DNA of 64,000 nucleotides, taken from the IMG/VR virus record IMGVR_UViG_3300032030_000028, positions 1 to 64,000 of that record; one strand, given 5' to 3'. The position numbers were made by a program, and so were the translations under genes. The notes beneath the pieces are model-generated. The model searched no databases and had not been told where the DNA came from. It saw nothing but the letters and a program-made list of their open reading frames with translations. Source of the DNA: a virus. Its lineage: Duplodnaviria; Caudoviricetes. Positions within the stretch are counted from its first letter, which is position 1. The number at the start of each line of letters is the position of its first letter. Below are positions 7,836 to 36,055 of this stretch, in pieces.

Positions 7836-8864
7836 CTAGATATTTGCATGTACATGTACGGCACTATCCTGAGATGCGGATTCGGATCTAGGATATCCGG
7901 AAAAACGAAGTATAGGTATATTGAATATATCGATCATGCTTTCTAGGTCGTCGCCTGGGATGCTTATATAGGATGCAATATCTTTCGCTTTGTTGGCGGA
8001 TGGCCTGCCTACTATGAAGTAATCGAATTTTTCTTGTTTATGATAGTAATACAAATCAATTACGCCGAAGAATCTAGATATGAGATTGTATCTTTCTTTA
8101 CTTTTATTTCTCAGCACATTCATGTTTCTCTCAACAAGTTCTTCTATCTCTCTCCGTTCAGATATAGATGAATCAAATTGAGCTAACAGGAGTTCGGGCA
8201 GTTTCTCTTCAATATCATCGGATATGATATCGAATAAATTGTCTATTACTTTCTCATTGCGGAAAATACCACCTTTTTCACCAAATACTGATTTGTAGTC
8301 GATATCAGGATACATCTTTTTAAATTTATCGTTGATTGCCGCCGGACTCTTCATAACCGAAGACCGCACGCGAGCGTCATCACCCTTAAATTCAAATGCT
8401 AATCCCCCGGCATGTACATCCGCTTTGCCTTTGTCGATATCTTTCAAGATCAGACGGCAAAGGATCTCTCCCGCACCTCTGGTAACACTATTTCTGGCGG
8501 GTGCAAAAGCACATATCTCTTGTAATGTGTCGAAAGAAAATACGTTTTGGAAGTGGTCATATATATTCCCACCGTATCTTAAAATGGATGAATCCGGCAC
8601 CGGAAGTTCTCCCTTTATCATCTGGATAAAGTTATTATAATCCCGATTGTTATCCTTTATGATCCGTACTACGTGCTTCCATACATCATCGATTTCCCGA
8701 TCTTTGAAATATTGTATAATCTGATCTTTATCAACTCTTTCCTGAGAGACAAAACGGAGAACATCCATTAGGGCATCATCCGGAGTTATCTGTAACTTAG
8801 AAGATATTTCCGCTATAGTACTATCTCTATCAAATGCTTCGATTGAATACTGTTTTAAATTCAT
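7836..8864 (-). CDS. Hypothetical protein, possible PD-(D/E)xK nuclease fold
   Basis: GAGE...ADV...FEFKG pattern; TAG stop. Confidence 0.55.
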   Translation of the reverse strand: MNLKQYSIEAFDRDSTIAEISSKLQITPDDALMDVLRFVSQERVDKDQIIQYFKDREIDDVWKHVVRIIKDNNRDYNNFIQMIKGELPVPDSSILRYGGNIYDHFQNVFSFDTLQEICAFAPARNSVTRGAGEILCRLILKDIDKGKADVHAGGLAFEFKGDDARVRSSVMKSPAAINDKFKKMYPDIDYKSVFGEKGGIFRNEKVIDNLFDIISDDIEEKLPELLLAQFDSSISERREIEELVERNMNVLRNKSKERYNLISRFFGVIDLYYYHKQEKFDYFIVGRPSANKAKDIASYISIPGDDLESMIDIFNIPILRFSGYPRSESASQDSAVHVHANI

Positions 8865-8921: not shown

Positions 8922-10775
8922 TTAGAATCCAAATTTATTTCTATATACACCATGCAGCTGATTCAGGGCGGCAAATGTGCCGGTAAGCTTCATGACTTTT
9001 CCTTTATAAGTGAATACCACGCCTTCGGCGGCACTCAGATTCTTATCTCCAATTCTTTTGATCTGAACCAGTGTCTTATTAATAGCATCTGGATCGTCGC
9101 TATCCATTATGGCGGTCCAGGCATGCAACATATCTTTTCTTAGCACATCCGTCACATAGCGCTCGCAGTTGGCATTGATAAATCCATCGCATATCTTCAT
9201 AAAGTCTATACCTATGCCCATGAATAACTCATCAAGCGGTTCCATGACTTTTTGGACATATTCCTTTCCCGGTCCCTTAAGTTCTTCATAATGATCCGGA
9301 TATACTTTCTTCAATTCGGTAACTCTAACGGTTTTGTCATCATTGAACCATCTGTTGAAGATCACATCCGTCATCTCGGTCATCCATTGGGGTTTGACTT
9401 CTTCAAATTTTTTCTTCTTCCATTCTTCTAGTGTTGCATTAAGATCTAAATCTAAATCTTTATATAGTTTTTTAATACCATCAATATACTTTTTCTTATA
9501 GCTTTCCGTATCCTCCATAGTTTTGATGATAATGTCTGGGCGCGGAGCTACCTGACTAGCATATACCCCGTGATTCACAATATCATATATGTCGTCTACA
9601 TGCCCTTCTACTTTCTTATATTCTTCCCAACCCTTTTCTCCTCTCTTATAGATCACATATCCATGGAAAGCTACCATATCGCTAGCATATATCATTACAT
9701 TGGTCTTGCCGGAAGTGATGCATTCGCAGTTGATAACCTTTCGGGTATCCGGTCTTGGATTGAAATATCGGGTTCCTAACTGTGAAAATATGCCTCGGAT
9801 AATCTCTCCAGCCTTTATGAATACATCCCGGACTCTCGGATTCATAGCCCATTTGTTAGCCATATCTCCGATAGTCATACCACCTTGTTCGGAATTCAGG
9901 TCGGACTTATTGCGGATAAACACTACCTCGCCATCTTCATTCATAGTAGCATAGATATTGGTACCGTCTAGTTTCTCCTTGACATGTTCCAGTTTACCGG
10001 AGAATAGGGTTCCGACAAGATTGCAGAGTTCCTTGCCTGTAAGTTCCGTGTAATCATAGGGGTGTGCCATATGTCCGGCGGCTCCGCCTTCTAAGATCAT
10101 ATTCAAGTAACCTCTCAGGCTCCGGGATTCTTTCACTCCTCCTTCCAGATCTCTCAAGAACCTTCCGAAAGCATCACAGAACTCTCCGAACATACCTCCG
10201 GTGCCTTTGGGCATCATCTTCTCGAATGAGGATTGATTTTTCTCTAATATAGATTTTCGGACTAGTGATCCGCTTACTCCGGAGCTCCGCCCATTGCCTA
10301 TATTAGGCTCTAGTTTGCCTTCCAGATCCGGAAAGCTCTTGATAAGAGTCTTGTATTTCTCTACCCGGTCGTCTCCACACATCAAATATTGTGGTTCATA
10401 TTCGCCTTCCTTGACTTTGTTATTGAAGTCTTCTATGGCCTCATAGGCATTTTTGACATAGATAATATCTATTATATCTTTCTTATAGTTCCGCTTGACT
10501 ATATCTAATTCTTTTTCAATAAGTTCGTTGGAAAAAGGTCGTTTCAGGATTTCTTTTTCTCTCTCGGTGAGATCTCCTTTGCCGGTCCTAGCAAATTCCG
10601 ATACTCTTTCTAGTTCTTGCTTGGATATTTTTTTACCTTTGATCTTAGAAGGATCCCGATCCGATGAATTGATTCTATATATAATACAAGGCAATTCCCC
10701 TTCCAATATCATATTGAGATGGCCTTGAGTAAACGGCTGAAATCTACCTATAGTTATATTGACTTTCTTTGACAT
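8922..10775 (-). CDS. Cytidylyltransferase-like domain fused to ligase-like nucleotidyltransferase domain
   Basis: GRFQPFTQGH, CGDDR, SGSLVRK in N-terminal half; GHMAHPYD, EKLDG, EGVVF, KLTG in C-terminal half. Confidence 0.7.
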   Translation of the reverse strand: MSKKVNITIGRFQPFTQGHLNMILEGELPCIIYRINSSDRDPSKIKGKKISKQELERVSEFARTGKGDLTEREKEILKRPFSNELIEKELDIVKRNYKKDIIDIIYVKNAYEAIEDFNNKVKEGEYEPQYLMCGDDRVEKYKTLIKSFPDLEGKLEPNIGNGRSSGVSGSLVRKSILEKNQSSFEKMMPKGTGGMFGEFCDAFGRFLRDLEGGVKESRSLRGYLNMILEGGAAGHMAHPYDYTELTGKELCNLVGTLFSGKLEHVKEKLDGTNIYATMNEDGEVVFIRNKSDLNSEQGGMTIGDMANKWAMNPRVRDVFIKAGEIIRGIFSQLGTRYFNPRPDTRKVINCECITSGKTNVMIYASDMVAFHGYVIYKRGEKGWEEYKKVEGHVDDIYDIVNHGVYASQVAPRPDIIIKTMEDTESYKKKYIDGIKKLYKDLDLDLNATLEEWKKKKFEEVKPQWMTEMTDVIFNRWFNDDKTVRVTELKKVYPDHYEELKGPGKEYVQKVMEPLDELFMGIGIDFMKICDGFINANCERYVTDVLRKDMLHAWTAIMDSDDPDAINKTLVQIKRIGDKNLSAAEGVVFTYKGKVMKLTGTFAALNQLHGVYRNKFGF

Positions 10776-20349: not shown

Positions 20350-20985
20350 ATGCGAATTAGAAAACAATACAGCATCGAGATGGGGCATCTGGTTAGGAAT
20401 TGTTCCTCCGAAAGATGTGCTTTTTCCCAGCACGGACACTCCGCCATTATAGAAGTAATTCTGAGTGCAAGTGCATTGGATAATGCCGGAATGGTTTATG
20501 ACTTCGGCCTAATGAAGGGCACTATCAAGCAGTTTATTGATTCTTTTGATCACTGCTATGTCTTCTGGAACAAGGAATCCGATGAATTTAAAGATTATAT
20601 TAAGAAATTCAATCGCCGATGGATAGAGACAAACTTCAACCCTACGGCTGAGAACCTGGCATTGTTTTTCCACGGCTGGATAGAATATATTCTTTCCAAA
20701 ACCGGAAAGCACAACAATGAAAGCCCGGATTTACACGTAGCTTCCGTTATCTATCATGAGACCGCTACCGGATATGCTCAGACGGAGTATGATGATGTGG
20801 ATATGATTTTTGATGATTCTTTCAAATACAACCATATCAGTCCCAGATTGAAGATATCCGATGTTTCCGAGCATGTCACCAAGGACTGGTCTAATGATCT
20901 TAAATCAATCATGCACCCCACCAGCATGGATTCCGATGGTGCTATTGTAGATAATCCGTTCCCATTCCATCAAATTGAAAATTAA
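20350..20985 (+). CDS. queD: 6-carboxytetrahydropterin synthase
   Basis: H..R.C...C...HGHS, GMVYDFG, FDH, NPTAENLA, YHETATGYA. Confidence 0.9.
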   Translation: MRIRKQYSIEMGHLVRNCSSERCAFSQHGHSAIIEVILSASALDNAGMVYDFGLMKGTIKQFIDSFDHCYVFWNKESDEFKDYIKKFNRRWIETNFNPTAENLALFFHGWIEYILSKTGKHNNESPDLHVASVIYHETATGYAQTEYDDVDMIFDDSFKYNHISPRLKISDVSEHVTKDWSNDLKSIMHPTSMDSDGAIVDNPFPFHQIEN

Positions 20986-26648: not shown

Positions 26649-27800
26649 ATGCCAATCAAGAAAAGTGAAATCAAGACGGAGCTGGATCAGCTCAAATATG
26701 ACTACATGAGAGCCTATCAACGGATGTGGGAGGCTCGGAAACGCGGAAAGGATCTTAAAGAATATGAAAAATGCCTAGCCGGAATCAAAGAGAAGATGGA
26801 TAAGATCACGGGACTGGCACCCGGACACAGAACCGTACACGAGCTCGATCGTAGCGAGTATAAAAAAGAGTTCGTGCCCGATAAAGACTATCTAGAGTCT
26901 ATGCCGGATCTTCAAAATTCTCAATTCATCGGAACTCCTATCGATTTTGTGGGTATTGAAGGAATGAGAATTCCTTTGAAGATCAAGCAGAAAAAGGGAG
27001 GAACCCAAGAAGTAGTCTGCGATGTCACCGGTACGGTCTCCCTAGATGCCGCCAAACGCGGTATCAATATGAGTCGCATCCTCCGCTCTCTGCAGAAGAC
27101 CACTAAAGGAGCTGCTACCTTCGACATCAACGATCTGGAAAAAGTCCTGAAAGCCTATCAGAAAGACTTGGATACCTTTGATGCCCACATCTTAGTGAAC
27201 TTCCCATACCGTCTTTGGCAACCCAGTCTGCGCAGTGTAGATGAAGACGGCGAACCCAATGGAGGCTGGCAATATTATAATGTCACCTTTGACTGCAACC
27301 TGGATGTCGATGGAGAATTCAAAAAGATCATCTGGTTCGATTATGTATATTCTTCCGCCTGTCCTTGTTCTACGGAGCTTTCCATGCATGCTCAGGAGAC
27401 CCGCGGAGTGTATGCCATCCCACATTCTCAGAGAAGCGTAGCTCGCATAGGTATCGAGATGGGCAACACACTGGTCTGGATTGAAGATATCCTGGCTATG
27501 TGCAAGAAGGCTATCCCTACAGAAACCCAAGTTTTTGTCAAGAGAGAAGATGAGCAGGCTTTTGCTGAGATGAATGGGGCCAATACTATCTTTGTGGAAG
27601 ATGCTGTCCGGAAGCTGAGTGTTATCTTGGAAGACAATGCGGCGGTGATGGATTATAAGATTATCTGTTCTCATGCGGAGAGTCTCCACAGTCATCAGGC
27701 CACCGCGGTTATCACCCGAGGTCGACATCGCACTGGAGCCGCTTCTATCTTCAACCACCATGTCTCATTAGAGGAGTGGAAGTCTATAAGTCATAATTGA
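26649..27800 (+). CDS. folE2: GTP cyclohydrolase IB (FolE2/MptA family) with N-terminal extension
   Basis: RGINMSR, SSACPCS, PHSQRS, VKREDE, FVEDAVR, ESLHSH. Confidence 0.9.
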   Translation: MPIKKSEIKTELDQLKYDYMRAYQRMWEARKRGKDLKEYEKCLAGIKEKMDKITGLAPGHRTVHELDRSEYKKEFVPDKDYLESMPDLQNSQFIGTPIDFVGIEGMRIPLKIKQKKGGTQEVVCDVTGTVSLDAAKRGINMSRILRSLQKTTKGAATFDINDLEKVLKAYQKDLDTFDAHILVNFPYRLWQPSLRSVDEDGEPNGGWQYYNVTFDCNLDVDGEFKKIIWFDYVYSSACPCSTELSMHAQETRGVYAIPHSQRSVARIGIEMGNTLVWIEDILAMCKKAIPTETQVFVKREDEQAFAEMNGANTIFVEDAVRKLSVILEDNAAVMDYKIICSHAESLHSHQATAVITRGRHRTGAASIFNHHVSLEEWKSISHN

Positions 27801-27853
27801 TAGGTTAAATTTTTAAAATTTGTTTTATTATATAAATTGAAACAACAAAATAA

Positions 27854-27997
27854 ATGCAACCGAAACTCGGACATATAATGGAAACCGCCGGATGGCAACA
27901 GGAAAGCTCTTTGAGAGCTCGCATGAGTGTGCCATGTCAAAATTTAGGAGATAATTATGTTTCCTTTATTGACAAATCCGTCGAAAATTCCCGTTGA
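27854..27997 (+). CDS. Putative 47-aa leader peptide upstream of the tRNA array
   Basis: MQPKLGHIMETAGWQQESSLRARMSVPCQNLGDNYVSFIDKSVENSR-TGA; A-rich upstream context; followed by terminator. Confidence 0.55.
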   Translation: MQPKLGHIMETAGWQQESSLRARMSVPCQNLGDNYVSFIDKSVENSR

Positions 27998-28035
27998 AGG
28001 TCCGGGAAAGGAAAACAAGATATACGCAATATAAG

Positions 28036-28070
28036 ATAAGGCCTTCATTTAGAGGGCCTTATTTTTTTTT
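28036..28070 (+). terminator. Terminator / possible attenuator
   Basis: ATAAGGCCTTC-ATTTA-GAGGGCCTTAT + T tract. Confidence 0.85.
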
Positions 28071-28145
28071 GACAAAAAAAGCAAGAAAATACCTTAAGAT
28101 TGGATAAAGTGCGTTTATATAAAGATGCAAGATTGAGAAACGCGA

Positions 28146-28179
28146 GAGTTCATTGACATATTGGAAAAGATCATAGATA
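28146..28179 (+). promoter_or_regulatory. boxA-like leader element, copy 1
   Basis: AGTTCATTGACATATTGGAAAAGATCATAGATA downstream of promoter 28094-28121; repeated at 31127-31159. Confidence 0.55.
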
Positions 28180-28281
28180 TAGTAAGATCTATAAAAGCCC
28201 CGAAAGGACCTGTGGGTTCTTTTGCGAGCATAATAAAAGATCTTGGAAGAATCGGAGCGAAAAGGCGAATACTCCGAGATA

Positions 28282-28354
28282 GGGAGATCCTCTAATCGGT
28301 TATAGGAGACCGGTCTGATACACCGGCAATCCGAGTTCGAGTCTCGGCCTCCCT
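28282..28354 (+). tRNA. tRNA-Ile(GAU)
   Basis: CCGGT-CTGATAC-ACCGG anticodon arm; GTTCGAGTC T-loop. Confidence 0.85.
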
Positions 28355-28361
28355 ACAAATA

Positions 28362-28576
28362 TGACCGGACATTCGGTGCACTATGTGAAAGTGTCATTAT
28401 TGTCAAGGTGGTCTGTTTGCCAGCTTTGACGAAAGGATGGAAAAGATGAAAAGCACTACGAAGTTGCAAATTCGTTTGTGTCTGAGTAGTAACCGTGAGG
28501 AGACCTGATCAACCTCCAAAAAGTCGGCTGTCTGTTGGTATTAGTAATATATCGGGTTCGATTCCCGACCGGCCAC
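28362..28576 (+). ncRNA. RNA with tRNA-like acceptor stem and T-arm enclosing a long insert
   Basis: 5' TGACCGG pairs with 3' CCGGCCA (one mismatch); TCGGG-TTCGATT-CCCGA T-arm. Confidence 0.5.
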
Positions 28577-28580
28577 CCAT

Positions 28581-28654
28581 GGTCCCTTAGCTCAGTAGGT
28601 TAGAGCGGCTGACTCATAATCAGCGGGTCGGGGGTTCAAGTCCCTCAGGGACCA
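28581..28654 (+). tRNA. tRNA-Ile2/Met(CAU)
   Basis: GCTGA-CTCATAA-TCAGC. Confidence 0.9.
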
Positions 28655-28760
28655 CTACTAAATGATGATATGCTTCCAAATATCTCGTATAATATGAGGA
28701 GCTTGAGCTGCTTAGGGTAAAGACGTTTGGTAGAACTAAGCCATCATTTATTAAATACAT

Positions 28761-28835
28761 TGCGGGATGGACTGGAGATGGTTCCAGCTCGGTCTCATAA
28801 GCCGAATTACGCGGGTTCGAGTCCCGCTCCCGCTA
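28761..28835 (+). tRNA. tRNA-fMet(CAU)-like
   Basis: TCGGT-CTCATAA-GCCGA; mismatched first acceptor pair. Confidence 0.85.
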
Positions 28836-28948
28836 CTGATCAAGTCCTAAGTGAATAACAGGCACTAGATGCTAGCATACCATCACGGACACAATCCGGT
28901 GAAGTCGAGGGTCACGACGCCGAGGGTCGGACAGTATGCTTTTTATAT

Positions 28949-29023
28949 TGGGGAGTAGCTTCAATTGGTCAGAGCTGCGGCCTGTTAAGCCGATGGTTGT
29001 GGGTTCGAATCCCACCTCCCCAG
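28949..29023 (+). tRNA. tRNA-Asn(GUU)
   Basis: CGGC-CTGTTAA-GCCG. Confidence 0.9.
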
Positions 29024-29081
29024 CAAATATGAATCTCACAGGGCCCGAGATCAATGGTGAGATTCAGAAAGATCTCAAATA

Positions 29082-29178
29082 TGCCGACGTAACACTAACA
29101 GACTGTAAATCTGTCCTGCCTTATCAAATTGGTGTACTGGACTCTGGCAGTAAGGGAGTTCGAATCTCTCCGGCGGCA
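29082..29178 (+). tRNA. Aberrant tRNA-Tyr(GUA): no D-arm, long variable region
   Basis: ACAGA-CTGTAAA-TCTGT directly after an 8-nt linker; normal T-arm and acceptor. Confidence 0.6.
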
Positions 29179-29339
29179 CTAGCAAACTTCACATGTGATA
29201 GCACGTTCCCTACCGGGTGATATAAAAGAGAAGGGATTAGCCGTCTTGGTAGAAATAGGCGGAGGTATGTTCCTGACCTAACTGGTGGAAACAGGGTTAT
29301 TCGTTCTCGAAAGAATGAAGTTCCGTGAGAATCGGAAGT

Positions 29340-29410
29340 GGATATGTAGCTTAGTGGTAAAAGCGGTCCCTCTAGGGGATTGACATGAGTTCGAGTCTCA
29401 TCATGTTCCG
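29340..29410 (+). tRNA. Putative amber suppressor tRNA(CUA)
   Basis: GGTCC-CTCTAGG-GGATT arm; normal D and T arms; bulged acceptor stem. Confidence 0.6.
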
Positions 29411-29416
29411 CAATTT

Positions 29417-29493
29417 GGAGGAGTAGCTCAGCTGGAAGAGCGCCAGATTGAAGATCTGGGACGTTAGCGGGGGTTCGACTCCCTCCTCCTCCA
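29417..29493 (+). tRNA. tRNA-Phe(GAA)
   Basis: CCAGA-TTGAAGA-TCTGG. Confidence 0.9.
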
Positions 29494-29578
29494 CAATAGG
29501 TTGACACTGAAGTACAAGGTGCAAGCAATGAGGTGTAATGGGGAGAGCCTCACGTTAAATAAAAACCCTCCCGGTCAC

Positions 29579-29652
29579 GGGCTCGCATGTTCCAAGGCTG
29601 GCGGAACTCCCTTGCAAGGAGATCGTGGTGAGTTCGATTCTCATCGGGTCCA
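29579..29652 (+). tRNA. tRNA-Ala(UGC)
   Basis: CTCC-CTTGCAA-GGAG; G3:U70 pair. Confidence 0.8.
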
Positions 29653-29657
29653 CAAAA

Positions 29658-29769
29658 GTCCGAGTTGGTACGGTTCGACTCCGTCGTTCACAGTGGTTTG
29701 TGACAAATACAGGTTCGAGTCCTGTACTGTCTTTCGGGGTGGTTGATGAAATTGGATAAACATCCGGAC
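29658..29769 (+). ncRNA. Circularly permuted tRNA-like (YrlA-like) RNA 1
   Basis: T-arm, TTCG-capped acceptor-like stem, then D-arm-like TGATGAAATTGGATAAACA; closed by GTCCG/CGGAC; extra upstream T-arm. Confidence 0.5.
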
Positions 29770-29778
29770 ATAATATAC

Positions 29779-29849
29779 AGGTATCTAGTTCAATGGTAGA
29801 ATAATGGTCTCCAAAACCATAGATTGAGGTTCGAATCCTTAGGTTCCTG
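29779..29849 (+). tRNA. tRNA-Trp(CCA)
   Basis: ATGGT-CTCCAAA-ACCAT. Confidence 0.9.
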
Positions 29850-29859
29850 CTAAAATTAT

Positions 29860-29967
29860 TACAATATGGTGTAATGGTAGCACACTCCTCATGCGGGGAT
29901 CGGATAGCGCACCGAATGAGGTTCTTAAATGAGCTAAGAGATGTAGGTTCGACCCCTACTATTGTAT
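29860..29967 (+). ncRNA. tRNA-like RNA with expanded anticodon arm
   Basis: TACAATA/TATTGTA acceptor, normal D and T arms, ~55-nt centre with CCTCAT/ATGAGG stem and no 7-nt loop. Confidence 0.6.
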
Positions 29968-29973
29968 CAAAAT

Positions 29974-30046
29974 GGCGCGTTCGTCTAGTTGGTTAGGACG
30001 CCAGGTTTTCAACCTGGAAACCTCGGATCATACCCGGGAGGCGCTA
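29974..30046 (+). tRNA. tRNA-Glu(UUC)
   Basis: CCAGG-TTTTCAA-CCTGG; atypical T-loop. Confidence 0.8.
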
Positions 30047-30051
30047 CTATT

Positions 30052-30124
30052 ATTCCCGTAGTTCAATGGATCAGAACGGATGACTACGGATCATCGGATG
30101 GGGGTTCGAGTCCTCTCGGGAATA
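30052..30124 (+). tRNA. tRNA-Arg(ACG)
   Basis: GATGA-CTACGGA-TCATC. Confidence 0.9.
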
Positions 30125-30282
30125 CATAAAAGTCTTGTGAAATGCGCGTGAGTAACAAGAATCGTACCAATCTTGGATAGGCGATGCGAAAGCGTCGGAT
30201 AACAATGATCCGACACCGGATCGTAAGTGCCGGTGGGAGTTTTCTGGTATAGTTCTCCGGTGATATAAACTATACCATCTAT

Positions 30283-30356
30283 GCGATAGTAGCTCAGTTT
30301 GGCAGAGCGTCTGCCTTCCAAGCAGAAGGTCGTGGGTCCAAGTCCCATCTATCGCT
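30283..30356 (+). tRNA. tRNA-Gly(UCC)
   Basis: TCTGC-CTTCCAA-GCAGA. Confidence 0.9.
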
Positions 30357-30375
30357 CACATTATCAAGTAGTTAT

Positions 30376-30447
30376 AGGGTAGTAGCGCAGCGGTAGCGTA
30401 CTTGATTTGGGTTCAAGTGGTCGTGAGTTCGATCCTCACCTACCCTA
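30376..30447 (+). tRNA. tRNA-Pro(UGG)
   Basis: CTTGA-TTTGGGT-TCAAG. Confidence 0.9.
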
Positions 30448-30473
30448 CTGATTATCAAGCACTTATAAGAAAT

Positions 30474-30556
30474 GGAGAGTAAATTCTACGGGGTAGGAGC
30501 CAACCTGCTAAGTTGTGCGAGCGTAACAGCTTGTGGATCGAGACCACTGCTCTCCG
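30474..30556 (+). tRNA. tRNA-Ser(GCU)
   Basis: CAAC-CTGCTAA-GTTG; long variable arm. Confidence 0.8.
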
Positions 30557-30785
30557 CTTATCGGAATATACAGTAAACGGGATAAACACAGGCAGCCGTG
30601 TGTTCCTTCGCCAACCATGGGAGGTGGGTAAATATCACCCTGTATATGACCAGCTGTGATAAATTAAAAAGGGGTTATATTAAAGCTTCCAAACCAGAAC
30701 CCCTGAGCCCTTAACTGTGTGAGACGTCACCAGGGCGACAGTCCATTGGGTAATTCCATAGGAGCGCTGTTAGGGAAGCATTTAT

Positions 30786-30857
30786 TGAGCTGTGGTATAA
30801 TTGGTAACACGTTGGGTTTTGGTCCCAAAGTTCTGGATTCGAGTTCCGGCAGCTCAA
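30786..30857 (+). tRNA. tRNA-Gln(UUG)
   Basis: TTGGG-TTTTGGT-CCCAA. Confidence 0.9.
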
Positions 30858-30859
30858 CA

Positions 30860-30981
30860 AAGTGAGATAGAACAGAGATTAGATGGTTCGAATCCTCCTG
30901 CGACGGGCGTTGCTGTAGCTCAACGGATAGAGCGCTGTTCTATAAAAATTCGGAAGGTCCGGAACTTCCGGATGCTCATTT
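30860..30981 (+). ncRNA. Circularly permuted tRNA-like (YrlA-like) RNA 2
   Basis: ATAGAACAG..T-loop GGTTCGAATCC..CTGCGAC-GGGC-GTTGCTG..D-arm TAGCTCAACGGATAGAGC..CTGTTCTAT. Confidence 0.65.
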
Positions 30982-30986
30982 CTCTT

Positions 30987-31059
30987 GTCCGAGTGTCCGA
31001 ATTGGTTTAGGTGACGGTCTGCAAAACCGTCTATGCGGGTTCAAGTCCTGTCTCGGACT
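30987..31059 (+). tRNA. tRNA-Cys(GCA)
   Basis: ACGGT-CTGCAAA-ACCGT. Confidence 0.9.
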
Positions 31060-31085
31060 CTTGAAAAAAAAATAATTTTCTTTCC

Positions 31086-31159
31086 TTAAGATTCTCTAAA
31101 GTCGTTTATATAATATCACAAGAGAGAAGTTCTTTGACATATTGGAAAGATCATAGATA
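31086..31159 (+). promoter_or_regulatory. Internal promoter plus boxA-like element, copy 2
   Basis: TTAA-N17-TATATA then AAGTTCTTTGACATATTGGAAAGATCATAGATA. Confidence 0.6.
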
Positions 31160-31166
31160 AGAAAGT

Positions 31167-31276
31167 TACGGGTTAAAATGTCGGTTCGAATCCGACCCTG
31201 TCCGCCGTTGAGAAATGTCTTCGGAAAATCATCCGAAGGGTGCGGGTGGGTTGACAACTGGATAGTCTGGCCCGTA
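31167..31276 (+). ncRNA. Circularly permuted tRNA-like (YrlA-like) RNA 3
   Basis: TACGGGTTA..GTCGG-TTCGAAT-CCGAC..CCTGTCCGC/GCGGGTGGG..D-like GACAACTGGATAGTC..TGGCCCGTA. Confidence 0.65.
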
Positions 31277-31280
31277 TTTT

Positions 31281-31354
31281 GCCCTGATAGCCCAATTGGC
31301 AGAGGCCTATGACTTAGGATCATAACAGTGCGAGTTCGAATCTCGCTCGGGGCA
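31281..31354 (+). tRNA. tRNA-Leu(UAG), short variable loop
   Basis: TATGA-CTTAGGA-TCATA. Confidence 0.85.
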
Positions 31355-31946
31355 CAAAGATCAGCAGACTGAATCAAGAAAAGCATAGAATAACAAAACA
31401 AAGAACAGAACGGCTGCCTCTTTACAAGTTTTCTTGAGCTGAAGGCCGTTTTAGCTGCCGATCCGAATGAGGTGAAATGATATATCCTCGCAAAGCACGG
31501 ATAAGATCTCGTGAAGATCCTAATCTTATTGGAACTAGTAGATTCCGGCTTTGAAAAGGCCGCGATAGCGGCAACACCACATGGTATTATAACACACTAG
31601 TTCTGTGCAATCTGCTCGAAGCACTTAATTAGAAAGAGAGAGCTGGAATCTTGGGCGCCAAACATAGACAAAAGACCGAGCGATGCAAGACGGAGCCGAA
31701 GCGATAAATTATCTAAAGAGGCTGTCCAGGTAAAGAACAATGCTTGTCCCTGGCAATAATGTAGCCAAACAAAAATCCGATGTGCCTCGAGAGAGTGTAC
31801 CATAAAAAAGGGAAAGCCGTGAACAGGTGTGCTGAAAATTTGCGAAAAGACGCAAGCACCACGGAATGTAGCATTGGATTGGAGCAAATAGGTCTCGTGA
31901 GGTCCCTTATCCTTGCATGGCTGAAAGTTCATGTTCTTTATTTGAT

Positions 31947-32020
31947 ATCCCGGTAGCCCAACCGGTAGAGGCACAGCGTTGAGGACGCTGACAGTGGCAG
32001 TTCGAATCTGCCTCGGGATA
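31947..32020 (+). tRNA. tRNA-Leu(GAG), short variable loop
   Basis: CAGCG-TTGAGGA-CGCTG. Confidence 0.85.
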
Positions 32021-32022
32021 CT

Positions 32023-32310
32023 AGTCAAGAATAGGTTACCACCGAGTAGTGTTCGGGGTAAATTGAATGGGGATGTATACTTAACCAGTCAATGTAGTCT
32101 TGGGTGGTGTGACCCCCAGCCCGATGAAAGGTGTTGGTTATCGTGAGGTGCCATAAGGTGCAACGCAACAGGAGGTAAAACCGCGTGGTAATGCAATCCT
32201 CGTAATGAGATCGCCCTATGTAATGGGTAATGGTGAGATCGCCCCATGTAATGGGTAGCGGGTTCAAAGCCGAGGTTTCTCCAGTCCGTAGCTCGTAAAT
32301 TTTCTTGACT
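32023..32310 (+). ncRNA. Putative structured RNA (~290 nt)
   Basis: Closed by AGTCAAGAA/TTCTTGACT; internal 24-nt direct repeat 32206-32229 / 32234-32257. Confidence 0.5.
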
Positions 32311-32318
32311 TTCTATAT

Positions 32319-32397
32319 TGTCTGATAGCTCAATGGCAAGGGAACAGAGCACCTCGGGAACATCGGGGCGACGGAGGTTCGATTCCTTCTCAGACAA
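32319..32397 (+). ncRNA. Aberrant tRNA-like RNA (enlarged D-loop, non-canonical anticodon loop GGAACAT)
   Basis: TGTCTGA/TCAGACA acceptor and normal T-arm. Confidence 0.55.
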
Positions 32398-32400
32398 CAA

Positions 32401-32816
32401 ATAATATCAGTTAACAGTAGGCTTGAAAGCAGCCATCTGATAATGAGTTGCGAGAGGAAGTTTGCGTGGAAGTCATGACTCCGCAAGAGAACAAGGCGCA
32501 TGTGAGTAACTTGGCAATATACATGTGAGAAACACCTCAGGAATAACAAAAATGGAAATCCCGAATGCAAAGAAGGTAGCATAGCTGAAATGCTATGTGA
32601 GGTTCCAGTAGCGTGACGGTGTATAGAAGTGATGTAGTTAAGTTTTATGTAAGCCCCAACAGTACGAGAGGAACCTGGGGTTAATGGATGCCATTAAGGT
32701 TTCTATGCCGTAAGTGATTCGGTAAAGAACGCGAGAAGTATCAAGTGAAGGCTCGCGGCCAAAAGCATAAAACAGTCCTCAGAGCATTTGGCGTGATAGC
32801 ACATAATTGGTATTAT
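32401..32816 (+). ncRNA. 416-nt RNA with 23S rRNA L11-binding-region and sarcin-ricin-loop mimics
   Basis: 13-bp closing stem; GTAGGCTTGAAAGCAGCCATC..TAATGAGT / GCGTGATAGCACA; AGTACGAGAGGA hairpin at 32652-32682. Confidence 0.7.
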
Positions 32817-32818
32817 AC

Positions 32819-32894
32819 AGGGAAGTAGCTTAGCGGTCTAGAGCGACAATGGGTGCGACGCCCGGAAACATTGGTTCAAATCCAGTCTTCCCTG
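32819..32894 (+). ncRNA. Aberrant tRNA-like RNA lacking a normal anticodon loop
   Basis: AGGGAAG/CTTCCCT acceptor, normal D and T arms, short GGGTG-CGA-CGCCC hairpin in centre. Confidence 0.55.
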
Positions 32895-32898
32895 CTAT

Positions 32899-32981
32899 GG
32901 AGAGTAAACTCGGAAGGTCTGAGCGCTGTCTCGAAAACAGACGGAGTCTAACGACTTGGGGATCGAGACCTCAGTTCTCCG
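32899..32981 (+). tRNA. tRNA-Ser(CGA)
   Basis: CTGT-CTCGAAA-ACAG; long variable arm. Confidence 0.8.
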
Positions 32982-32986
32982 CAGAT

Positions 32987-33073
32987 GGAGAGCTAAGCCG
33001 GCGGGGCTGGCCGCTGTTTGGAAGACAGTCGGAGTCTGAAAGATGGCTTGGGGATCGACACCTCAGTTCTCCG
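32987..33073 (+). tRNA. tRNA-Ser(GGA)
   Basis: GCTGT-TTGGAAG-ACAGT. Confidence 0.8.
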
Positions 33074-33081
33074 CAAACAAT

Positions 33082-33165
33082 GGAGAATTAACTGCAGCGG
33101 CCTGCAGGCCGGTCTTGAAAACCGTGGGAGGGTAACACCTTGGGGATCGACACCTCAGTTCTCCG
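33082..33165 (+). tRNA. tRNA-Ser(UGA)
   Basis: CGGT-CTTGAAA-ACCG. Confidence 0.8.
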
Positions 33166-33339
33166 CAAAGGCTTCAGTAATGAAGTTAGGTGTCCTTGGG
33201 AGGCTTAATTACCCTCCGACCGTGTGGAAACCCCACTATAGCGTACCGAGGATCGTGGGCACCCTCCGTCAGTGTAGTAGCGCTGTAAACTGACGGAGAT
33301 ATCCAAGCAAATAATCAGCACGAAAGTGCGTCAACATAT

Positions 33340-33432
33340 CAGGTGTGTGCTGGAATTGGTAGACAGCTGAAGGAGGTTAGATCCTCACAGGGTGATAATG
33401 TAACCGTACAGATTCAAATCCTGTCGCACCTG
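33340..33432 (+). ncRNA. Aberrant tRNA-Leu-like RNA
   Basis: Leu-type D-arm CTGGAATTGGTAGACAG, CAGGTGTG/CGCACCTG acceptor, irregular anticodon arm. Confidence 0.45.
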
Positions 33433-33444
33433 CAACACATAATT

Positions 33445-33518
33445 GGACCTATAGTCCCAGTGGTCTAGGATGCCTGACTGTCTATCAGGAGGCCCGGGTT
33501 CAAGTCCCTCCTAGCCCA
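33445..33518 (+). tRNA. tRNA-Asp(GUC), imperfect acceptor and T stems
   Basis: CCTGA-CTGTCTA-TCAGG. Confidence 0.7.
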
Positions 33519-33637
33519 CTATGAGGAGTGTACATAAACCTCAGACGTGCGCCTATGGCTCGCAAAAACATAGGTAGTTATCCGTTTATAGGTAAAACGG
33601 CGGACGGAAGCGGCCCAACCGTAAGAGGCCGCAATAT

Positions 33638-33709
33638 GGTGATATTAGTGTAATGGTAACACGAGACACTGTGGATGTCTTATTATCGGTTCAAATCCGG
33701 TATATCACC
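33638..33709 (+). tRNA. tRNA-His(GUG)
   Basis: AGACA-CTGTGGA-TGTCT; extra 5' G. Confidence 0.9.
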
Positions 33710-33872
33710 CTAAAGGATTGGTTGATCCGAGGTTCAAGAAGGCCCCCGTAAGATGGCTAGTCGTTGGGGCAATGCTTGAGATGGATACCGCGAAGGGACA
33801 GCCATAAGTCTTGAAGTACGGTTAGATGCGGAGCTGGTGAAAGTCCAGACTATGTAGGACAATCCAATCTAT

Positions 33873-33946
33873 AGCCCGGTAGCCCAACCGGCAGAGGCAA
33901 CAGATTCAAAACCTGTATAGTGTGAGTTCGAATCTCACTCGGGCTA
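33873..33946 (+). tRNA. tRNA-Leu(CAA), short variable loop
   Basis: ACAG(A)-TTCAAAA-(C)CTGT. Confidence 0.8.
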
Positions 33947-34074
33947 CAAAAAAAATGGAACAATAGAGTAGAGAATCGGTCTGTGAGAATAAATTGCCTG
34001 CGCAGAATCCCATTCTATTCTTAAGGAAAAGGTATATTGTGGCAATTCTGATACCGAAGTACTGTTCCATTTAA

Positions 34075-34198
34075 CGGGGTATGGTCGAATTGGTAGAGAT
34101 ACCCGGTATGGACCGGGAGGTTTGTGAATAATTCCATGGTGAATAGCAAACAGAGATTCTTCGGAATCCGAATGGTGGTTCGAGTCCACCTACCCCGA
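34075..34198 (+). ncRNA. Aberrant tRNA-Pro-like RNA with large variable-region insert
   Basis: CGGGGTA/TACCCCG acceptor; CCCGG-TATGGA-CCGGG 6-nt loop; two extra hairpins before T-arm. Confidence 0.55.
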
Positions 34199-34330
34199 CA
34201 ATCGTTATCTAGTATCCGGCAACCTATATGAGCCGGGAATTCGAGAATATCTCGTTAATAGGCCAAGGCCATGCCCCTTGCTAGTGGGGGTTGGAGTCCA
34301 CACAGAAATGTGGGAATCACTAGCGATAAT

Positions 34331-34404
34331 GTCGGTATAGCGGAGCTGGTTTCTTGCGCCTCTCTCATAAGGAGGAGACGGTGGTTCGAGTCCACCTACC
34401 GGCA
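34331..34404 (+). tRNA. tRNA-Met(CAU)
   Basis: CCTCT-CTCATAA-GGAGG. Confidence 0.85.
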
Positions 34405-34424
34405 CTCATAAAAATGTTATAATT

Positions 34425-34805
34425 ATGGAAAAGAAGATAAAGGATCGCAGATATACAATTCTCGGAATTCACCGGAACGGCACATTATACGGATGGGCCG
34501 AAAATTCATTTTCATTCTCCCCCTCCGAGGACTACACTAGGGTTTGGGGTGCTGAATACAAAGAATGCGGCAATCGTCAATATTGGAAACCTAACAAAAA
34601 TCAATCCACTTGGAATTATCTCAAGAAGGTGGCGGACGATCTGACCGCAAAGAAGTATATGGGGTGTGTATGGAAAGTGTATAGGGTCGGTAGTAAGCAC
34701 TGTCCGGTCGATATAGACTTCAGAACCTGCGATCTGATGAAAACCGGAAAAATAAAATACGACAAATATCAGGCGAGAAACCACAAATTCACGTCGAAAC
34801 AATAA
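34425..34805 (+). CDS. Basic hypothetical protein inside the RNA array
   Basis: 126-aa ORF with AT-rich start context, no overlap with tRNAs. Confidence 0.7.
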   Translation: MEKKIKDRRYTILGIHRNGTLYGWAENSFSFSPSEDYTRVWGAEYKECGNRQYWKPNKNQSTWNYLKKVADDLTAKKYMGCVWKVYRVGSKHCPVDIDFRTCDLMKTGKIKYDKYQARNHKFTSKQ

Positions 34806-35068
34806 CGGGCGACCCGGATAATGGGGACTGAACAGGCGGGTTAGCTACCGCTTACGCAGCGGCGCTTCTGAGACGGATCTCAGAGACAAGCCGTAAAGTG
34901 CGGAACCGAAAGTCCAATGAGCTGTAGACAATCGGCACAAGCACCAGAACTCAGGCGAAGACAGTTGCAATAGAGCTCAATAAAGAGCTGCCAAGTCTGA
35001 GTCATTCTCTGACTGGACAGGCCAGTCCAAGAAGAAGCGTTCAGGAGGTTCGACTCCTCCTCGCCCGA
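34806..35068 (+). ncRNA. RNA with tRNA-like acceptor stem and T-arm enclosing a long insert
   Basis: Perfect CGGGCGA/TCGCCCG ends; GGAGG-TTCGACT-CCTCC T-arm. Confidence 0.6.
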
Positions 35069-35075
35069 CTAAGTT

Positions 35076-35159
35076 GGCCGAGTGGTGGAATTGGTAGACA
35101 CGTCAGACTTAAAATCTGGTGCCCGTAAGGGCGTGCGGGTTCAAGTCCCGCTTCGGCTA
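35076..35159 (+). tRNA. tRNA-Leu(UAA)
   Basis: TCAGA-CTTAAAA-TCTGG; long variable arm. Confidence 0.92.
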
Positions 35160-35232
35160 CAAACAATGGATATTTGGAGTGAAATTGTTAAAACGTTGTG
35201 ATTCACTCATGGAAATATTCTAACAACGTTAC

Positions 35233-35305
35233 GCGTCAGTAGCTCAGCAGGTAGAGCACATCCCTTTTAAGGATGGGGTCCCGGGTTCGAGCCCCGGTTG
35301 ACGCA
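35233..35305 (+). tRNA. tRNA-Lys(UUU)
   Basis: CATCC-CTTTTAA-GGATG. Confidence 0.92.
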
Positions 35306-35314
35306 CTTATAAAA

Positions 35315-35397
35315 GGAGAGCTAAATCGGCGGGGCCGATCGCTGTTTGGAAGACAGTTGGAAGATGACGCTTTGGGGATCGAGACCTCAGTTCTCCG
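35315..35397 (+). tRNA. tRNA-Ser(GGA), second copy
   Basis: GCTGT-TTGGAAG-ACAGT. Confidence 0.75.
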
Positions 35398-35402
35398 CAC
35401 AA

Positions 35403-35475
35403 GCCCTTGTAGCTCAATTGGTAGAGCAACGCACCTGTAATGCGAAGGTTGCTGGTTCAATTCCGGTCAGGGGCT
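35403..35475 (+). tRNA. tRNA-Thr(UGU)
   Basis: CGCA-CCTGTAA-TGCG. Confidence 0.85.
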
Positions 35476-35492
35476 CTTATTATAATTATATT

Positions 35493-35568
35493 GGGAGTTT
35501 AGCTCAGCTGGTTCAGTAGCGTCTGCCTTACAAGCAGAAGGTCGTTGGTTCGAATCCAACAACTCCCA
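35493..35568 (+). tRNA. tRNA-Val(UAC)
   Basis: TCTGC-CTTACAA-GCAGA. Confidence 0.9.
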
Positions 35569-35572
35569 CAAA

Positions 35573-35860
35573 GCTGGTATCGATGACGCTCTGGTGAAAG
35601 GATGTTTGGACGAGGGGTTCGATTCCCTCTACCTCCACTATTTCTCAGCTGACCAACCATGATGTTGGAACAGTTACGGTGGCGGAAACTTAACATGAGA
35701 TCCGTCACTTGCTTATGGGGGTAATTGGTTTTGACAGCATTTGAGTAAGAAGAGAAGAGATGCTGGTAAGTGAGAATAAATCACAACACAACTTTTCGTC
35801 TTGCCGCTTAATCTCTAGGAGATTTAGCAGTAAGGGTCCGGGCGGAACCAAATCCGCCCT
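35573..35860 (+). ncRNA. ssrA: Two-piece (circularly permuted) tmRNA
   Basis: Acceptor piece GGACGAGGGGTTCGATTCCCTCTACCTCCA (to 35637) precedes GGGGGTAATTGGTTTTGAC (35717); G3:U70; tag frame 35782-35811 HNTTFRLAA-stop. Confidence 0.8.
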
Positions 35861-35864
35861 TTAT

Positions 35865-35937
35865 GCTCTTATAGCTCAATGGATTAGAGCACGGGCCTCC
35901 GGAGCCCGGAATCCGGGTTCGAATCCCGGTAGGGGCT
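35865..35937 (+). tRNA. tRNA-Arg(CCG)
   Basis: CGGGC-CTCCGGA-GCCCG. Confidence 0.9.
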
Positions 35938-35965
35938 CGAAAAATATCTATGATCTTTCCTATAT

Positions 35966-36038
35966 GCCCCGATAGCTTAATTGGAAAAGCAGTACCCTTC
36001 TAAGGTATGGAGTGGGGGTTCGAATCCCTCTCGGGGTA
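35966..36038 (+). tRNA. tRNA-Arg(UCU)
   Basis: GTACC-CTTCTAA-GGTAT. Confidence 0.9.
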
Positions 36039-36055
36039 CAAAATTAAGAATTATT

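Follow-up and report, generated by a model that had tools for sequence, protein, structure and literature searches.

A conserved reading frame, RNA fold and terminator at the head of a phage tRNA array: a candidate leader-peptide-type transcription attenuator

The tRNA array of a metagenomic jumbo phage was found to be preceded by a cassette that is shared by a small clade of such phages and in which a promoter-like motif is followed by a frame of 41-49 codons set in a conserved RNA fold and by a terminator. The explanation that we favour, and to which we give an even chance, is that this cassette would act as a leader-peptide-type, ribosome-dependent transcription attenuator heading the array. 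The comparison of related phages established the conservation of the cassette and its frame, and of the predicted helices and alternative pairing; the translation of the open reading frame (ORF), the efficiency of termination, and the read-through and its trigger are what we infer from these sequences.

The cassette and its locus

The window, i.e. the whole stretch of DNA analysed (64,000 nucleotides), covers the opening 64 kb of a metagenomic virus record of 110 kb, with a CheckV completeness of about half. The host is probably Bacteroidota-like, as suggested by the lack of Shine-Dalgarno sequences and by the CHU_C and Fib_succ_major domains in the relatives of the phage. The cassette and the array are both on the + strand. 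Upstream of the cassette are 7-deazaguanine-type genes, namely a PTPS/queD-like gene, a radical-SAM gene and folE2 (26649-27800). In relatives, an intein interrupts a QueC homolog (Pfam Intein_splicing / Hint, plus a faint LAGLIDADG match; L029:1-491, L030:207-2111 and the ENA contigs of P0004 and P0006), and an IF1-like gene (PF01176) is present two genes upstream of folE2 in all of them.

The array (28281-36039) opens with a tRNA-Ile gene (28281-28356) and, according to ARAGORN, contains 24 tRNAs at default settings and 29 with relaxed thresholds, plus a permuted tmRNA (35577-35811) which matched Rfam RF04321 with 62 bits, above gathering. Four Ser-type tRNAs (anticodons GGA twice, UGA and CGA; 32987-33074, 33082-33166, 35315-35398 and 32819-32895) were detected only under the relaxed settings. 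No canonical Ala, Asp or Tyr tRNA was found by ARAGORN in the array of the window; these are present in the related contigs L001, L029 and L030. A tRNA with a CUA (amber) anticodon is located at 29340-29409, and L029 has two copies of it (8399-8465 and 9896-9967); among the 41 long ORFs of the window, TAG still terminates 5, TAA 29 and TGA 7. A hairpin (TCGGAG...CTCCGA, 28249-28276) adjoins the 5' end of tRNA-Ile and may serve in processing of the precursor; its arms show a compensated change to TCGAGG...CCTCGA in L024 and L025. Ahead of this tRNA there is also a ~44-nt unit, AAAGCCCCGAAAGGACC...GCATAATAAAAG (approximately 28184-28227), which is duplicated in tandem in L001 (8711-8798) and is missing in L024 and L025.

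The cassette begins with a promoter-like region (27804-27839), composed of GTTAAAT (27804-27810) and TATTATATAAATTG (27826-27839). This putative promoter was kept in all relatives, also where the upstream neighbour changes. Its TTATATAAA core is also found ahead of the PTPS/queD-like gene at 20350, 26 nt from the ATG, and six of its nine + strand copies in the window are intergenic. Another motif of this promoter-like type, CTTAAGAT ... TTATATAAA, is situated between the terminator and the first tRNA, upstream of the 44-nt unit. It had been pointed out at 28094-28121 in an earlier reading of the sequence alone, and was located here at 28093-28123 and in every lineage, being also found 3' of the terminator in L029, L030 and L032; it is repeated within the array at 31084-31159. 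The genes behind an attenuator are expected to depend on read-through, with no promoter after the terminator, and here the conserved motif at 28093-28123 is a predicted promoter, so that the array need not rely on read-through. A 21-nt box, AGTTC(A/T)TTGACATATTGGAAA, comes after the promoter-like motif in two places, ahead of the first tRNA (28147-28167) and inside the array (31128-31148), and is conserved in L029, L030 and L032. It might serve as a promoter element or as a signal for processing.

The leader ORF (27854-27997) comprises 47 sense codons and a TGA stop codon. A recount agreed with the sequence-only reading that it encodes all 20 amino acids with 34 distinct sense codons. When this coverage was set against random ORFs, as that reading had advised, it was within chance: the probability of finding all 20 residues in 47 was 1.2% with the amino-acid composition of the phage and 1.6% in real 47-residue windows, 4.9% of composition-matched stop-free shuffles contained all 20, and the single case among the 65 ATG-initiated ORFs of 40-55 aa in the window compares with about one expected. 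The start context is A-rich without a Shine-Dalgarno sequence, as in 39 of the 41 genes of the window. The G+C content at the three codon positions of the frame was 0.47-0.56, 0.34-0.43 and 0.37-0.47 across all lineages, i.e. the same GC1 > GC2 ~ GC3 order as in the genes of the phage (0.46, 0.34 and 0.37). Codon usage was ordinary (21st-79th percentile in a codon-adaptation test), and the idea of a leader built of rare codons was rejected on this result. No run of one regulatory codon was seen in the ORF, with its 34 different codons and with 19-20 different residues across the relatives.

Two competing frames were also considered and rejected. An ORF at 27957-28034 (25 aa, with AGGAG 7 nt upstream) retains this AGGAG in neither L001 nor L024, and in L024 its frame is also disrupted by a 2-nt deletion. 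An antisense ORF (MAHS..., from 27935 down to 27828) is open in relatives, yet it runs into the 5' UTR, which has 1-nt indels, and so is not the frame that was kept. As other frames on both strands of the leader region are also often open, the openness of the ORF says little by itself. The statistics of the single sequence being within chance, the case rests on the relatives.

Related phages and how they were found

A scan of IMG/VR by folE2 yielded one related phage, L001, and the scans of IMG/VR and of JGI metagenomes together gave only this one related contig (L001 = L020 = L023). A blastn search against 50,697 phage records gave no match. A search with the peptide returned three clusters of 47-aa products and five further loci (L024-L028); as these five close relatives were found via the peptide, their ORF is intact by ascertainment and they form a biased set. 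Three contigs (L029, L030 and L032) were instead picked as those of the closest FolE2 homologs, without reference to the ORF, with FolE2 identities to the window of 92%, 83% and 70%, respectively.

The cassette was present in all three FolE2-found relatives. In L029 and L030 it lies directly 5' of a tRNA array opening with tRNA-Ile, and the L032 contig ends just past the cassette. The ORF has 49 codons in L029, 41 in L030 and 45 in L032, against 47 in the close relatives, and the leader peptides have 47%, 33% and 38% identity to that of the window. All lineages share the ATGCAA start and the TGA stop, at homologous positions. The search for codon-diverse upstream ORFs with a terminator before the tRNA arrays of related phages, which the sequence-only reading had recommended, thus recovered the cassette in four diverged lineages, the only four that were compared. 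Further folE2 relatives (L002-L015, L031, L033 and L034) had no tRNA array or cassette in reach of the contig.

The profile searches revealed no peptide family outside these phages. Two of their matches (P0124 and P0128) were rejected as relatives, being long repetitive proteins; in another, the relative P0127, the gene caller begins the ORF at codon 9, giving 37 aa. Four viral contigs (L016-L019) carry the exact 23-nt terminator hairpin AAGGCCTTCATTTAGAGGGCCTT after genes (e.g. L016:4862-4884). They were rejected as relatives, since they are from unrelated phages without tRNAs and share this hairpin only, which reflects either coincidence or a convergent terminator sequence.

The junction immediately 5' of the cassette is a hot spot for insertions, and the cassette always begins at the same GTTAAAT motif. 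In L001, a 366-aa ORF with a GIY-YIG-like, homing-endonuclease-like N-terminus (L001:7223-8323) is inserted between folE2 and the cassette, and folE2 has its own terminator downstream; the entire cassette is still found before tRNA-Ile. Two extra ORFs are upstream of the cassette in L027 (2186-2944) and a different upstream gene in L028 (3-527).

The frame is kept and the peptide is not

The sequences were cut at conserved anchors (ATGCAAC, GGACATA, ATGGCA, GTGCCATG, TGAAG and TAAGGYCTTCA) and the lengths of the segments were compared between lineages. The differences inside the ORF were +3, +3, -3, +3, -6 and -18, all six of them multiples of three, for which the chance is (1/3)^6 = 0.0014. 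Outside the ORF, the 5' UTR was 28 or 29 nt long and the spacer from the stop codon to the terminator 42, 43, 41, 44, 41 or 30 nt. Indels thus respect the frame over just the stretch that the borders of the ORF enclose.

Substitutions between the lineages were flat over the codon positions (17/16/16, 22/18/14 and 19/18/17), and the pN/pS of the ORF (0.31-0.84) was no lower than that of shifted frames (0.49-1.1); neither measure revealed purifying selection on the leader peptide beyond the shifted frames. Overlapping RNA constraints could mask weak selection on the peptide. A frame kept without constraint on the peptide would be expected if the act of translation matters and not the product. 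Third codon positions changed by 17% in the ORF versus 28-42% in folE2, which indicates a constraint on the nucleotide sequence itself, and conservation over the 240 nt preceding the terminator exceeds that at the synonymous sites of folE2.

RNA fold, terminator and alternative pairing

The leader region had a fold z-score of -5.4 against shuffles. RNAalifold on the close relatives gave a multi-stem domain closed by two predicted helices, P1 (27866-27872 with 28000-28006) and P1b (27876-27881 with 27991-27996), which join codons 5-10 (27866-27881) to the region of the stop codon. Their joint energy was -15.9 kcal/mol (27866-27881 with 27991-28006), and they were present in all minimum-energy folds and displayed covariation, with a G-C to A-U compensation of P1 in L032 and wobble to Watson-Crick changes in P1b. 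In the predicted fold, P1/P1b provides the protector pairing (1:2) by which an attenuator sequesters its antiterminator strand. The P2 hairpin (27890-27937) has a core of AUGGCA (27892-27897) with UGCCAU (27930-27935), 97.9% paired in 8 sequences, and an apical hairpin (27906-27918); the apical part is lineage-specific yet always a hairpin. The P3 (27946-27965) and P4 (27969-27984) hairpins vary between lineages: each had a compensatory G-C to A-U change among the close relatives, and L032 and L030 have other hairpins instead.

In the close relatives, 98.6% of the cells of the full fold were paired, with three compensated pairs. For P1, P1b, P2 and the terminator, 95.8% were paired in 8 sequences, compared with 30-52% when the partners were slid. 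The 8-sequence alignment contained two doubly compensated pairs, one in P1 of L032 and one in the terminator of L030 and L032, a result matched by 3 of 500 shuffles. The diverged relatives, each folded alone, gave the same plan of P1/P1b/P2 and terminator.

No Rfam family, T-box included, was matched in 27820-28285 at gathering or E-value thresholds; the only matches were terminator look-alikes with E of 0.2-10, and those to Phe_leader and RnaG (E ~0.3) were discarded because they align to the terminator alone. Neither the match to a curated model nor the conserved ligand-binding core of a riboswitch or T-box was thus found, P3 and P4 differing between lineages.

The strong terminator that had been described at 28036-28070 was found at 28033-28070, as a 14-pair stem (28033-28046 with 28052-28065) followed by nine U up to 28070, with a hairpin energy of -18.6 kcal/mol. 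This predicted intrinsic terminator, located between the leader ORF and the genes that would be regulated, is conserved and includes a compensated pair. The 3' strands of P1b and P1 form the putative switch strand (27991-28006), which carries the TGA (27995-27997) and could pair instead with the G+C core of the 5' arm of the terminator. The complementarity of the stop-overlapping TGAAGGTC (27995-28002), the antiterminator strand, to GGCCTTCA (28040-28047) was confirmed, with 7 Watson-Crick pairs and one U.G. The flanking alternative pairings that had been proposed along with it, UUCCCG/CGGGAA and UGUUUCCUUU with AAAGGAAAACA (bulged), both appeared in the folds.

The antiterminator duplex had an energy of -10.2 kcal/mol, or -7.6 as a hairpin with a 37-nt loop. 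A duplex as strong with the terminator arm was obtained with 17% of shuffled upstream sequences, and in five of six sequences its strength was unremarkable against shuffles. In each of the six sequences examined, the best partner of the terminator arm began one nucleotide 5' of the stop codon. Conservation of the stop-overlapping pairing, whose loss in relatives would have counted against the sequence-only reading, was complete: all 64 cells held standard pairs (G-C / A-U / G.U and U.G / C-G). Where the terminator has C to U at 28042 (a C-G to U-A stem compensation in L030 and L032), the antiterminator partner changed from G to A in L030 and forms G.U in L032, and L032 also has U.G to C-G at the next antiterminator pair. 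The two switch-strand changes, one in L030 and one in L032, preserve the antiterminator and each cost one P1 pair. The covariation involves two variable columns and was reached by 114 of 500 shuffles. The antiterminator is thus consistent with an alternative pairing under selection, rather than proven to be one.

Folding with a ribosome footprint, a further check recommended earlier, did not favour the switch. In the fold without a ribosome, the domain was closed and the terminator was formed. For 28-nt masks at codons 5 to 48, both on the full transcript and on transcripts that end at 28051, the antiterminator was never in the minimum-energy structure, and forcing it cost 0.3-4.5 kcal/mol. 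Equilibrium folding argues neither for nor against the switch, which would have to act kinetically, as in classical attenuators.

Proposed mechanism and alternative explanations

In the mechanism that we propose, when no ribosome is present P2-P4 would bring the closing strands together, the domain would shut, the terminator would form and transcription would stop at 28070. A ribosome keeping pace to the TGA would cover 27995-28002, and the terminator would again form. A ribosome lagging or stalled inside the ORF would hold P1 open and leave the switch strand free to capture the emerging terminator arm, and the RNA polymerase would read into the array. This read-through would add to the transcription from the array's own promoter, rather than being the sole source. 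The attenuator architecture put forward by the sequence-only reading is backed, at moderate strength, by the conservation of the cassette, the exact frame, the helices and the pairing embedding the stop codon, and falls short in the missing codon run and in the promoter-like motif after the terminator.

The same features may be read as a stand-alone tiny gene or dual-function RNA, that is, a structured transcript of about 220 nt with a fast-evolving peptide of 41-49 aa, the array being transcribed from its own promoter only. The cassette does have its own promoter-like motif and strong terminator, another such motif is found past the terminator in all lineages, the reading frame is conserved and the energetics do not favour the antiterminator, all as this explanation would have it. 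It is nevertheless somewhat unlikely, as the peptide shows no purifying selection beyond shifted frames and has no family outside these phages in the profile searches; it also leaves unexplained why the stop codon is always within the complement of the terminator arm, with compensating changes, and why the position directly before the array is constant. An untranslated structured RNA with an incidental ORF, either a small RNA or a riboswitch-like leader in which a ligand or factor would set P1 against the terminator, is unlikely. The multi-stem fold conserved with compensatory changes and the slow change of third positions relative to folE2 (17% against 28-42%) would suit such an RNA, and a P1 strand doubling as antiterminator is a classic riboswitch design. 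However, such an RNA does not account for indels that respect the frame exactly within the ORF borders, nor for the conserved start and stop; the differences in P3 and P4 between lineages leave no stable aptamer core, and terminator look-alikes apart there was no Rfam match, T-box included, down to E = 10.

The terminator might also be an insulator which merely blocks transcripts from the folE2/7-deazaguanine block, the upstream sequence having no switching role. This would be in keeping with the array having its own promoter-like motifs, and with the window having no terminator between the end of folE2 (27800) and the leader hairpin. In L001, however, folE2 has a terminator of its own as well as the homing-endonuclease insertion, and the entire cassette is still intact; the 240 nt before the terminator, moreover, are conserved beyond the level of folE2 synonymous sites, and we consider the insulator quite unlikely. 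That a chance ORF and a chance complementarity arose in ordinary intergenic DNA would agree with the unremarkable single-sequence statistics, but the cassette, frame, helices and pairing were kept in four lineages at 33-47% peptide identity, and a very recent common descent is contradicted by the divergence of folE2, which makes this explanation highly improbable.

An amino-acid-complete leader

A more specific version of the attenuator reading is that the leader ORF has been kept amino-acid-complete, so that a shortage of any charged tRNA would lead to more transcription of the array, which would make the cassette a general sensor of decoding capacity. Triggers such as attack by a host anticodon nuclease or host shut-off would delay the leading ribosome, whereupon the terminator arm would be captured by the switch strand and the full phage tRNA set would be transcribed more strongly. 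We hold this version to be doubtful. The leader uses 20 distinct residues in the window, L024, L025, L029 and L032, and 19 in L001 and L030, both of which lack Thr. When the ORF of the window was drifted neutrally to the observed identities, the probability of 20 residues was 7% and 5.5%, and that of 19 or more 27%; with seven invariant residues fixed (including W, C and H, in conserved helices) these values became 22%, 16% and about 50%. The joint replication p for amino-acid completeness ranged from ~0.001 to ~0.02, and was ~0.02 with the invariant residues fixed. The array's canonical tRNAs can read 37 of the 47 leader codons, compared with 70% in genes (p = 0.12), and the leader has Ala, Asp and Tyr codons, for which the window's array has no canonical tRNAs. 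The completeness of the leader is suggestive, not established. For the general tRNA-depletion sensor inferred by the sequence-only reading, the all-20 content replicated only nominally (p ~0.02) and the match of codons to the array was at chance level.

Comparison with known systems

Phage tRNA arrays have been discussed as a counter to codon-usage mismatch, host shut-off and tRNA-cleaving defence; to our knowledge, their regulation is essentially undescribed. No paper on an attenuator or leader ORF heading a phage tRNA array was found in a full-text search of the literature. A conserved, frame-kept leader ORF wired to a terminator would be the first testable control element for such arrays, and would carry leader-peptide attenuation, familiar in amino-acid operons, over to tRNA genes and into a non-Shine-Dalgarno host group. 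If the amino-acid-complete design is true, the sensing logic would be new, responding to overall decoding capacity versus a single amino acid.

In the attenuators of amino-acid operons (trpL, hisL, pheL and the multivalent ilv and thr leaders), a ribosome at the stop codon of a leader ORF covers the antiterminator strand; trpL-type leaders have a protector (1:2), an antiterminator (2:3) and a terminator (3:4), and the sequence of their peptide is unconstrained. Like trpL, hisL and pheL, the cassette has P1/P1b in the place of 1:2, a putative antiterminator (2:3), a terminator (3:4) and a switch strand that contains the stop codon. It differs from trpL-type leaders in having no run of codons for a single amino acid, 19-20 residues being used once or a few times, and in its longer ORF (41-49 codons), which extends over an entire folded domain, the protector strands lying about 110 nt apart. 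What is encoded downstream, moreover, is tRNAs instead of biosynthetic enzymes, there is a promoter-like motif past the terminator, and the cassette is phage-borne.

In resistance leaders of the ermC/cat, vmlR and bmrCD type, a stall in a short leader ORF is decisive; they respond to antibiotics and control resistance genes. As proposed here, the cassette would resemble them in that the stalling of a ribosome, and not the shortage of one amino acid, would choose between terminator and antiterminator, and would differ from them in having a tRNA array as its output. The pheM leader of pheST has Phe codons, and T-box leaders contain the conserved T-box sequence and sense uncharged tRNA by binding it directly. 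With both of these the proposed attenuator would share the placing of genes of the decoding machinery under a choice between terminator and antiterminator, whereas, unlike T-box leaders, the cassette is matched by no T-box or other Rfam model.
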